Source of the DNA: Staphylothermus marinus F1
GTDB taxonomy: Archaea > Thermoproteota > Thermoprotei_A > Sulfolobales > Desulfurococcaceae
NCBI RefSeq assembly: GCF_000015945.1
Contig: NC_009033.1
Coordinates: 1,500,001-1,532,000 of the forward strand
Direction of reading: 5' to 3'
DNA length: 32,000 nt
The position numbers and the translations under genes were made by a program. The number at the start of each line of letters is the position of its first letter. The first letter of the stretch is position 1. Below the pieces are notes generated by a model. The model saw only the letters and a list, made by a program, of their open reading frames with translations, made no database searches and was not told the DNA's origin. Of this stretch, positions 11,643 through 28,392 are shown piece by piece.

Positions 11643-11917
11643 TAATTAACGATCACCATGCTTTAGATAAAATAATACTTAGTTTAAAACATATGGTTTC
11701 CCTTACATCATTTTGCTACAATAAATACTTGAACAAGCTTCTCCCTCTTACAGTATTAGGATTTTAATACTTTTCATTGAGGTATCTTTAGACTATTCGC
11801 TTGTTTAGATGCTATGGTTGTTTTGGAAATTATGAAAACTATGATTGTTTTGAGGGTTAGTTGTTAGGTTCGTTTTATATATTTTTGTATAGTTTTTATT
11901 GGTGGTGGGGGTTGGGG

Positions 11918-13144
11918 GTGAGGGTTTATGCAACCGTTAAGATAAGGGCGGTTGCCCCCAATCCCAGCCTCCACCACAAACTCTATCTATTTCTTAGATC
12001 ATATTGTGACTGGACACAGTATATTATAGATAATATATGGTTTGAAGATAAGATTCCATCTATGAAGAAACTACACGACAAATTTTATGGTTTGTTGAGG
12101 AGCATGGGTTTTCGTGCACATCACTGCCACAAAATTGAGCGTAGAGCAAAAGAAATTGTTAAATCCGTTAAGAAGAATAGGGGTAGGAAACCAGTATTGA
12201 GAAAATTAACAGCTAGAATAGATTATGAAGACTATAGACTAGATTTGAGGAGTAAAACATTGAAGATAGCTGTGCTCGATAATGAATGGATAGTTTTGAA
12301 GCTTAAATGGTACAGTTACATAAACAAATATATTAGTGATGATTGGAAGCTTAAGGAAATACTTGTATCTTTTAGAAACAATAATATATGGATATACTTG
12401 GTTTTTGAGAGAGAAGTTGTTTTTAGGAAGCCTAGAACTGTTATGGGTGTTGATATTAATTTTGACAACATAACATATACTATACTGGACATGAATGGTA
12501 GATTAGTATCTATGGGTATTATTCCATTCAAGGGTTTACGTAGAGCACTTCATTATAAGAAGCTTGCTGAGAAATTGCAGAAGAGGTATCCTAGGAATTG
12601 GAGATATGTTAAATGGGTTAGAAATGTTAGAGCTAGATGGTTGGGGAGAGCTAAGAACATATTGAGAGACACATCACACTATATAGCCAAAAAGATTGTA
12701 GGGATAGCAGATGAACATAACTCGGTAATAGTATTAGAGGATCTAAAAAATATTAAATCAAATAATAAGGGTAAAAGGTTTAATTGGAGAATAAATTTCT
12801 GGACATATCGTAGAATACAGGAGTACATCTACTATAAAGCATTAATAAAGAATATTCCTGTAGCATTCATTGATCCAAAATACAGTTCTAAGAAATCACC
12901 TATAGGTGATAGATTAATTTTCATAAACTATAGGTATGTTAGGTTGCCTAATGGATTCATTGTTACTCGCGACATTATTGCTTCATGGAACCTTGCACTC
13001 AGATATCTGCGGATGAAGGGCTCTGGGTGGTCTATGTGGAGCCCCGATAACTCCCTCAATGAAGGAATGAAGCCCCAACTCAAGAGGGGGAAGCCCGTGC
13101 AAGTATCAAAAATAACCAAAATAACCATAGTTTCTAAAAGATAA
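11918..13144 (+). CDS. tnpB: TnpB/OrfB RuvC-like (RNA-guided) endonuclease, zinc-ribbon cysteines absent
   Basis: RuvC-I is VMGVDINFDN, RuvC-II is VIVLEDLKNIK and RuvC-III is VTRDIIASWNLA. GTG at 11918 is the likely start, because the upstream 19 codons of the ORF-track frame lie in the IS left end. The usual CxxC...CxxC segment is replaced by YSSKKSPIGDRL...VRLPNGF. Confidence 0.85.
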   Translation: MRVYATVKIRAVAPNPSLHHKLYLFLRSYCDWTQYIIDNIWFEDKIPSMKKLHDKFYGLLRSMGFRAHHCHKIERRAKEIVKSVKKNRGRKPVLRKLTARIDYEDYRLDLRSKTLKIAVLDNEWIVLKLKWYSYINKYISDDWKLKEILVSFRNNNIWIYLVFEREVVFRKPRTVMGVDINFDNITYTILDMNGRLVSMGIIPFKGLRRALHYKKLAEKLQKRYPRNWRYVKWVRNVRARWLGRAKNILRDTSHYIAKKIVGIADEHNSVIVLEDLKNIKSNNKGKRFNWRINFWTYRRIQEYIYYKALIKNIPVAFIDPKYSSKKSPIGDRLIFINYRYVRLPNGFIVTRDIIASWNLALRYLRMKGSGWSMWSPDNSLNEGMKPQLKRGKPVQVSKITKITIVSKR

Positions 13145-13158
13145 TGCACGGGCAACCA
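13009..13158 (+). ncRNA. candidate omega/reRNA scaffold overlapping the tnpB 3' end and right end
   Basis: The segment is conserved at nucleotide level in two loci that lack a tnpB ORF (28251-28392 plus strand, 25436-25577 minus strand). The stems gggctc/gagccc (13018-13023/13039-13044) and gcccgtgc/gcacgggc (13093-13100/13146-13153) are kept in all copies while the loops diverge. Confidence 0.4.
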
Positions 13159-13330
13159 TTAATATTTCTATCCAACCCTAAACCTTTTCATCACATAGGG
13201 GATCAAGGTAATAGATATGTTGGAGACGTAGTTGCTGATCAATTCCTTAACGGAGTCTAGCCGAGATAATTTATATATATTCATATAGGTTTATAGAATA
13301 ATAATAGTAGATACTTCTTGTAAGTATTGT

Positions 13331-14303: not shown

Positions 14304-14711
14304 TTATGGATCTAGTTTTTCTGCTTCCCCCCATAGAATTCTCACTAGATCCATAAATTTATCTAGCTCGTTTCTAAGAGTATCATATATTATGTCATGC
14401 CTTATCTCAGCATAGCCGTGAACAAGTATGTTCCTCATACCCGGAACAGCTAGTAGGATGTCAGAATATTTTCTTGGAACAATATTGGCATATATAATTG
14501 ATTCAACCACCTCCCTATAGCTTGGCCCCCTCGAGACCCCTTTACGAGCAGCTATGAATGCTGCTAGGTCAAGTATGGATTCTAAAACTATGTGTAAATG
14601 CCTCTCAGCCAATGCTTGTAGATCCTCGTTTACCCTGTATTCATCCCATGGTGTCTCAACAATATTTCTAAGCTTCTCCAAGCTCCTCCTAGCCCTAGAA
14701 ATTCTTGCCAC
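14304..14711 (-). CDS. hepT: HepT-type HEPN toxin (DUF86)
   Basis: The Rx4H motif is in MRNILVHGYAEI. 135 aa. It overlaps the upstream MntA gene by 17 nt. Confidence 0.85.
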   Translation of the reverse strand: MARISRARRSLEKLRNIVETPWDEYRVNEDLQALAERHLHIVLESILDLAAFIAARKGVSRGPSYREVVESIIYANIVPRKYSDILLAVPGMRNILVHGYAEIRHDIIYDTLRNELDKFMDLVRILWGEAEKLDP

Positions 14712-15114
14712 CAGACCTGGTGAGGGCGTAGTGCATCTCCCTCCTAAACAACTTTATTAGGGGCTCTAGATCAGCTACTTCATCTATAGCTTTTGCTAAG
14801 TCTTCATAGTATTCGTTCAAGCATTCCCTGCCACAATAATATATTAGGTCTCCATTGGAGAGAGCCTCCCACACAGCTATAGGGTTCCAGTCATCGATCA
14901 CCAGTAGATCAACTCTTCTACCAGCACACTTTTCAAGCATAGATAATATGAGTCCTCGCTCAACAAGTGATAGATTTCTCCCAGCCTTAACGGCAACATC
15001 ATAGTCGCTATGAGGACCAGCATATCCTCCAGCATGGGAGCCGTAAACTACTAGATACCTCAGACCATATTTTGAGGCAATACTTCTAAAACAATCATAT
15101 ATTCCCTTATCCAA
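14695..15114 (-). CDS. mntA: MntA-type nucleotidyltransferase antitoxin
   Basis: VVYGSHAGGYAGPHSDYDVAV carries the GSx(n)DxD motif. It lies directly upstream of the DUF86 gene. Confidence 0.85.
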   Translation of the reverse strand: MDKGIYDCFRSIASKYGLRYLVVYGSHAGGYAGPHSDYDVAVKAGRNLSLVERGLILSMLEKCAGRRVDLLVIDDWNPIAVWEALSNGDLIYYCGRECLNEYYEDLAKAIDEVADLEPLIKLFRREMHYALTRSGGKNF

Positions 15115-25435: not shown

Positions 25436-25700
25436 GTGGTTGCCCGTGCATTATCTTTTGGTTATTTTGGATATTATGGGTACTTGCACGGGCTTCCCCC
25501 TCTTGTGTCGGGTTTTCATCCCTTCATCGAGGGGGCTATCGGGGCTCCACACCGACCACATAGAGCCCTTCATCTGCTTTTTATTAACCATAATATTAGT
25601 GAGGGGTTTATAAAGTGAACCCTATGCATACAAAACATGTTCCGAATAGTTTTCATAGCTTCTAAAAGAGCCGAAATACCCAAATAAATGAACAGTCTAA
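25436..25700 (-). mobile_element. MITE-like non-autonomous derivative of the IS200/IS605 element (left end plus right end/omegaRNA-like module)
   Basis: The reverse complement begins ttagactgttcatttatttgg.. (left-end-like) and ends ..aaaagataatgcacgggcaaccac (right end). It shares an identical 63-nt core with copy C and the gttcactttataaacccctcactaata junction segment. There is no tnpB ORF. Confidence 0.65.
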
Positions 25701-28126: not shown

Positions 28127-28392
28127 TTTAGACTATTTGCTTATTTGGATACTATGGTTGTTTTGGAAACTGTGGAAACCATGATTGTTTTAATTATTGG
28201 GTTCACTTTATAAACCCCTCACTAATATAATGGTTAATGATTTGTGAAATGCAGATGAAGGGCTCATGGTGGTCTATGTGGAGCCCCGATAGCCCCCTCG
28301 ATGAAGGGATGAAAACCCGACACAAGAGGGGGAAGCCCGTGCAGATATCCAAAGTTTCCAAAACAACCAAAAGATAAAGCACGGGCAACCAC
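28127..28392 (+). mobile_element. MITE-like non-autonomous derivative of the IS200/IS605 element (left end plus right end/omegaRNA-like module)
   Basis: 28127-28197, tttagactatttgcttatttggatactatggttgttttggaaactgtggaaaccatgattgtttt, aligns with the IS left end at 11787 onward. 28251-28392 aligns with the tnpB 3' end and right end at 13009-13158. tnpB itself is absent. Confidence 0.65.

Follow-up and report, generated by a model that had tools for sequence, protein, structure and literature searches.

Can a TnpB nuclease dispense with the zinc ribbon between its RuvC-II and RuvC-III motifs, and if so, is what remains an active enzyme or the relic of one? This question is raised by a tnpB gene of Staphylothermus marinus F1, located at 11918-13144 on the forward strand of the 32,000-nucleotide stretch analysed here (the window; NC_009033.1, positions 1,500,001 to 1,532,000) and probably identical to Smar_1546, judging from its position. 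A reading of the sequence alone had proposed that the encoded protein retains the RuvC D-E-D triad while lacking every zinc-ribbon cysteine, and had left two choices, a natural zinc-independent lineage or a catalytically altered, domesticated copy. The role of the C4 zinc finger in TnpB and Cas12 proteins has been described as unclear (PMC10691335).

The cysteine-free segment and its protein context

Translation of 12872-12973 on the forward strand, which corresponds to the former C4 zinc ribbon (the TNB segment) and ends at D352, agreed exactly with the sequence-only reading and contains no cysteine. Indeed, the whole protein has only two, and these, C30 and C70, belong to the N-terminal lobe; therefore a misplaced motif alignment, or ligands located elsewhere, can be ruled out. 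Pfam PF07282 (TNB) covers the stretch above its cut-off (32.5 versus 26.3 bits), and among NCBIfam models TIGR01766 passes on the window TnpB (60.4, cut-off 32) and NF040570 falls slightly below its threshold (91.6, cut-off 100). The earlier suggestion that other residues occupy the cysteine positions stands in that no cysteine is left, but it needs amending in that the change does not amount to four plain substitutions, each knuckle being one residue shorter. In alignment with the closest C4 relative, P0124 (43% identity), C1 falls on S327 and C3 on L343, with a one-residue gap in each knuckle whose placement within the knuckle is ambiguous, and the segment comprises 26 residues as compared to 28 in close C4 relatives. 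Its conservation (0.72) is that of the remaining domains (0.72-0.75), with P328, L333, F335, I336, N337, Y338 and L343 each at least 90% conserved, and its hydrophobic fraction is 0.40 versus 0.28 in C4 sisters. No conserved set of His, Cys, Asp or Glu was found within the TNB segment. The remodelled TNB is probably metal-free and held by hydrophobic packing instead of zinc.

The catalytic residues are a different matter. RuvC-I D179 (12452-12454), RuvC-II E274 (12737-12739) and RuvC-III D352 (12971-12973), all on the forward strand, are kept in 120, 120 and 118 of the 120 closest homologs, respectively, and the full triad is present in 124 of 128 cysteine-free loci from genomes and metagenomes. 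The RuvC-III motif is canonical (R-D-x-x-A-x-x-N, with D352), and the Arg preceding D352 is nearly invariant across a cysteine-free clade that has diverged to about 50% identity. The frame is uninterrupted from TTG 11861, the called start is GTG 11918, and the 408-residue product ends at 13144. Thus the earlier claims of an intact triad and an unbroken ORF both hold. RuvC catalysis itself needs Mg2+ or Mn2+.

An AlphaFold model of the 408-residue protein has a pLDDT of 85.5, rising to 88-96 across residues 321-360, where a short beta-hairpin is predicted at 340-350. AlphaFold confidence does not, however, establish that the domain is stable without metal. At about 400 residues the model shows the WED-REC-RuvC-TNB fold, matching Cas12f and TnpB structures over residues 1-370 with Z scores of 17-22, among them AsCas12f (Z 22.2) and ISDra2 TnpB (Z 19.1). 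A fold search with the isolated domain gave a best Z of only 4.5; nine of its top ten hits were Cas12/TnpB chains, matches that were helped by the RuvC helix included in the query. Foldseek with the isolated 53-residue domain returned nothing at E <=0.001.

Distribution and ancestry of the cysteine-free state

A survey of homologs revealed that the missing cysteines are not peculiar to this copy. A CxxC pair occurs in none of the 120 closest homologs (51-100% identity), of which 115 have no cysteine in the region and five a single stray one, whereas among the best 150 representatives 63 of 78 readable segments contain at least four; the loss is therefore not a matter of chance. Similarly, all 128 genome and metagenome loci at 45% identity or above have zero or one cysteine and all 20 more distant loci have four, these loci being copies and not independent events. 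In a maximum-likelihood tree, built without the zinc-ribbon columns and leaving out fragments below 330 residues and most of the distant representatives, the cysteine-free proteins form one group inside C4 relatives (support 87/80, node not starred). The group adjoins P0130, which has two cysteines and may represent either a stage on the way to full loss or a case of partial loss in parallel, and the four-cysteine P0124. Two other cysteine-free lineages, P0242 and L031/L033, are placed elsewhere in the tree; a single origin of all cysteine-free TnpBs in the set was rejected (AU test, p ~2e-78), and at least three separate zinc-finger losses are forced by starred branches.

Selection has acted on these proteins. 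Among the four copies in the host genome dN/dS is 0.12-0.24 at dS 0.3-0.7, and inside the cysteine-free segment it is about 0.1. These data support, at the level of sequence, the cysteine-free state as a trait of one clade under purifying selection and hence the first of the two choices originally offered, a natural zinc-independent lineage. Recent inactivating substitutions confined to one copy, the outcome that would have undone that proposal, can be dismissed given the same cysteine-free sequence in 120 homologs and the low dN/dS of the segment.

The element that carries this TnpB is found mainly in Desulfurococcales, which make up most of the named hosts of the clade along with a few other Thermoproteota MAGs. 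Within a phylum-wide sample the segment was present in only 2 of 201 genomes, both from the host family, and no relatives were found in viral contigs. The survey also brought up some unusual relatives. P0242, L031 and L033, and L034 and L035 represent additional TnpB lineages, independent of this clade, in which between zero and three of the zinc ligands are present; of these, L031/L033 have a longer insert and lack the Glu at the aligned RuvC-II column. Separately, P0042 (L304:2501-4603) is a 700-residue called product containing a cysteine-free TnpB, possibly a read-through or a fusion with a second tnpB fragment.

Element ends, target site and predicted omegaRNA

The host genome, a single contig of 1,570,485 bases, contains four full copies of the element (near 78.7, 767.9, 1114 and 1512 kb), whose genes share 82-83% identity with that of the window. 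All four have sharp boundaries, with AGAC followed by TATT at the left junction and GGGCAACCAC at the right end. In the window the AGAC lies on the host side at 11790-11793 (forward strand) and is followed by a left end at 11794-11855 (forward strand; inner boundary approximate) in which an array of imperfect 9-bp direct repeats is kept in all four full copies. Some 28-30 MITEs of 180-270 nt carry both element ends, including two in the window, one at 25436-25698 (reverse strand) that derives from the element by joining its left end to the omegaRNA/right end, and a second at 28130-28392 (forward strand) with the same shared ends.

AGAC is present at 30 of 32 left junctions, a count that is partly circular as the motif search used AGAC. 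Six of the MITE insertions have an empty counterpart in the sister genome, where each site has a single copy of the target, AGAC in four and a one-base variant in two, with no target-site duplication. For the window copy itself no such empty counterpart was found, because its right flank is not syntenic in the sister genome. Neighbours and flanks differ at every copy, the sites are unrelated, and the element has been mobile in the past. The dinucleotide AC is common to the AGAC target and to the right end CCAC, which is present in 61 of 66 clade loci, and forms the shared core. C4 sister elements (L159-L176) were seen to start after GCC and to end in AACCCC, giving a CC core; the core dinucleotide has therefore switched between sister lineages. 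The window copy ends in CCAT (13156-13159), a mismatch to the AC core that may block its excision. In none of 32 insertions is AGAC preceded by a C (background 12%, p ~0.02), which hints at a preference for D-AGAC.

Both ends show a 9-base periodicity that exceeds all 200 shuffles; across 30 clade left ends the lag-9 autocorrelation is 0.454 versus 0.302 in shuffled sequence (maximum 0.329). The left-end repeats may be transposase-binding motifs of the IS607 type. Absence of duplication, a shared core dinucleotide and end repeats have all been reported for IS607 elements (PMC6188088; 10.1101/2023.11.20.567912), and these three hallmarks are found here, with AC instead of GG as the dinucleotide and repeats inside both ends. 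What is not found is a TnpA encoded within the element. No serine TnpA was detected inside the cysteine-free elements examined, which are therefore non-autonomous, and a search for a Y1 (HUH) transposase found none, either across the complete host genome or in the flanking DNA retrieved with cysteine-free loci. The tnpA matches nearby (L125, L136, L236) are beyond the left end as mapped or are encoded on the other strand. An apparent native tnpA beside a cysteine-free tnpB (L296/L136, G002:C177) was discarded, the element having in fact inserted at an AGAC within a tnpA; the L296/L136 insertion is thus nested, truncating another IS607 tnpA. Among the relatives searched, IS607 TnpA scored above cut-off in 23 of 61 and Y1 in 5 of 61, and P0130 sits directly behind a full serine TnpA (MerR-resolvase). 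The only IS607 tnpA of the host is a fragment, and given this the element may now be stranded and immobile in S. marinus. At 834 kb a distant C4-type tnpB sits behind a truncated IS607 tnpA; this gene (G000:C1:834011-835488, L001:1542-2989) has four cysteines and a Gln at the RuvC-III Asp position.

A further feature of these elements is a divergent ORF of about 48 codons between the left end and tnpB, present in 84 of 104 cysteine-free loci and also in C4 sisters (for example, L105:1781-1924 and L299:2284-2427, both on the reverse strand). Its product has a weak match to DUF1905 and looks AbrB-like by our own reading. The S. marinus copies are without it (window 11794-11917), the distance from left end to tnpB start being 128 nt as compared to about 293.

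At the other end, an omegaRNA scaffold including the right end is predicted at 13010-13159 (forward strand, 5' boundary approximate), overlapping the 3' end of tnpB. The predicted fold of the last ~150 nt has a hairpin with compensatory changes (13017-13045), two more stems, including one that encloses the 9-bp repeats (13093-13100 with 13146-13153), and a pseudoknot (13027-13031 with 13155-13159) that pairs the hairpin loop GTGGT with the terminal ACCAC, all on the forward strand. Paired cells amount to 93.5% versus 38-47% in slid controls, counts that are inflated by relatedness. Covariation is confined to the first hairpin, the pseudoknot being conserved without covariation, and the CCAT end of the window copy would keep the pseudoknot through a G-U pair. 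A search of the region against Rfam gave nothing above the gathering score. Conservation ends after the right-end tetranucleotide, and the host flank immediately downstream (13160-13175, forward strand), which differs at every copy, is the predicted guide. We also considered self-targeting, but the longest guide match next to an AGAC is 11 nt, about as expected over 32 guides.

Proposed activity, alternatives and relation to known systems

We consider it likely that this TnpB, carried by a non-autonomous element of the IS607 type, is active independently of zinc and cleaves element-free alleles at AGAC plus guide. According to this model, the C4 ribbon lost its zinc ligands in the ancestor of the clade, both CxxC knuckles would have shortened to tight turns, and hydrophobic packing would have replaced the zinc ion. 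A serine transposase supplied in trans would excise and insert the element by recombining AC at AGAC, an enzyme postulated to account for the observed junctions. The 3' end of the transcript would fold into the predicted omegaRNA with the downstream host flank as guide, TnpB would cut element-free alleles in which AGAC adjoins a match to the guide, and the element would then be restored by repair templated on the occupied allele. The cleavage step and the restoring repair are proposed by analogy with work on ISDra2, ISGst and the C. botulinum IS607 element, and AGAC is a candidate TAM read from the junctions. Caution is called for above all because Cas12g no longer cleaves once its equivalent C4 finger has been substituted with alanine (PMC10511118); in this relative, at least, the ligands are important.

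That same result would suit an RNA-guided DNA binder or nickase, in which a remodelled TNB that no longer loads both strands leaves cutting reduced or altered and the element persists because the protein binds, nicks or regulates, perhaps using guides supplied in trans by the MITEs; retention of the omegaRNA region by about 30 MITEs is likewise consistent with it. We regard this as unlikely, however. Binder-only derivatives (TldR, Cas12m, Cas12k) usually lose catalytic residues, whereas here the triad and the Arg before D352 have hardly varied at ~50% identity, and no guide self-target beside AGAC exceeds the 11 nt noted above. A particular form of this idea, in which the metal-free TNB shifts activity to binding or nicking and the ~30 MITEs serve as a dispersed guide bank for the four TnpBs in trans, strikes us as improbable. 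Equally improbable is that a structural metal is still bound at another site, which would make the protein cysteine-free yet not zinc-independent. Within the N-terminal lobe, all clade members share H53, H68 and H69, and C70/H71 are frequent, but C4 relatives also have the R-A-H-H motif, which is far from the TNB in sequence. As it predates the loss, we rejected it as a compensating His-rich site, and the TNB offers no ligand set of its own.

Domestication, the other choice originally offered, would make this a host-serving TnpB fixed at its locus. The missing transposase, the age of the four copies (dS up to 0.7) and the altered terminal base of the window copy might all be expected of such a gene, but the gene family is absent from the sister genome (best A1 match 1e-35, with the cysteine-free segment unmatched), and neighbours and guides vary by locus. 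A TldR-like protein would have an inactivated RuvC and a fixed locus with a conserved guide, neither of which was found. With its canonical triad, both ends intact, copies at several unrelated sites and MITE sites empty in the sister, a catalytically altered domesticated copy is very improbable. Decay is more improbable still and is refuted for the clade. Loss of the cysteines after inactivation could draw on the observation that about 30% of clade copies look broken, a stop or split alignment being present in 38 of 128 cysteine-free copies versus 3 of 20 C4 copies. This excess can be explained by IS turnover and assembly errors; conservation of the sequence in more than 120 homologs, dN/dS and the intact window ORF all argue against a pseudogene.

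An active zinc-independent TnpB would be unusual within a very common class of element but would have precedents, and nothing in the clade suggests that the system itself is of a new kind. Although the canonical ISDra2-type pattern CxxC...CxxC is absent from the window TnpB, the C4 finger does not define TnpB overall, and whole branches without it have been published (PMC10691335). The phenomenon is therefore already known, and the rarity implied by the sequence-only reading was overstated. Among these branches, RIIIr-4 (Altae-Tran et al. 2023, PMC10691335) has likewise lost the finger throughout an apparently active group, but has a rearranged RuvC-III, whereas in the present clade the canonical Asp is retained and the domain, though remodelled, has almost its full length. 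ISDra2 TnpB (PDB 8H1J, PMC10097598) shares the fold (rmsd 5.2 over 327 residues), the D-E-D triad, an omegaRNA that overlaps the 3' end of the gene and ends in a pseudoknot, and a disordered C-terminal tail; in contrast to the window protein, to which it is only ~16% identical, it binds zinc through C331/C334/C351/C354, and its element is moved by a Y1 transposase. The IS607 TnpBs (C. botulinum IStron, 10.1101/2023.11.20.567912; IS607, IS1535 and ISC1926, PMC6188088) share the RuvC DED and a right-end omegaRNA, and their elements likewise insert without duplication, prefer a four-base target, have a dinucleotide that occurs in both the target and the right end, and bear terminal arrays of short repeats. 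The core and target of that family are GG and TGGG, as compared to AC and AGAC here, and the window element differs further in lacking a tnpA and TNB cysteines; most members of its clade have the divergent 48-aa ORF in the place of tnpA. SisTnpB1 of Sulfolobus islandicus (10.1101/2023.03.06.531077) resembles it in description, as a crenarchaeal, thermophilic RNA-guided nuclease of ~400 residues, with TTTAA as TAM versus the candidate AGAC.

The value of the clade lies in the comparison it offers. The C4 sister P0124, the two-cysteine P0130 and the cysteine-free proteins with an intact active site form a natural series in which a purely structural role of zinc is directly testable. If active, the protein would be a compact hyperthermophile nuclease without structural zinc and with a predicted AGAC TAM, and IS607-type recombination would extend to an AC core. 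Our coverage of the literature, which was incomplete, returned nothing on Staphylothermus with TnpB or a cysteine-free TNB, and no paper on the AGAC/AC junction or omegaRNA of this clade. The S. marinus IS607 elements described by Anderson et al. (2009, PMC2678158) are these same elements, namely four one-ORF copies, a single element of two ORFs whose first is truncated, and the MITE family, first noted there, with members of ~260 nt; the passages considered contain no mention of the zinc finger, omegaRNA or target. As given there, the MITEs number 14 versus the ~28-30 found here, the ORFs are named transposases, and the four copies are called recently duplicated, as against the dS of 0.3-0.7 reported above. 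Elsewhere in the window, an MNT-HEPN toxin-antitoxin pair (nucleotidyltransferase plus HepT-like) is located at 14304-15114 on the reverse strand.
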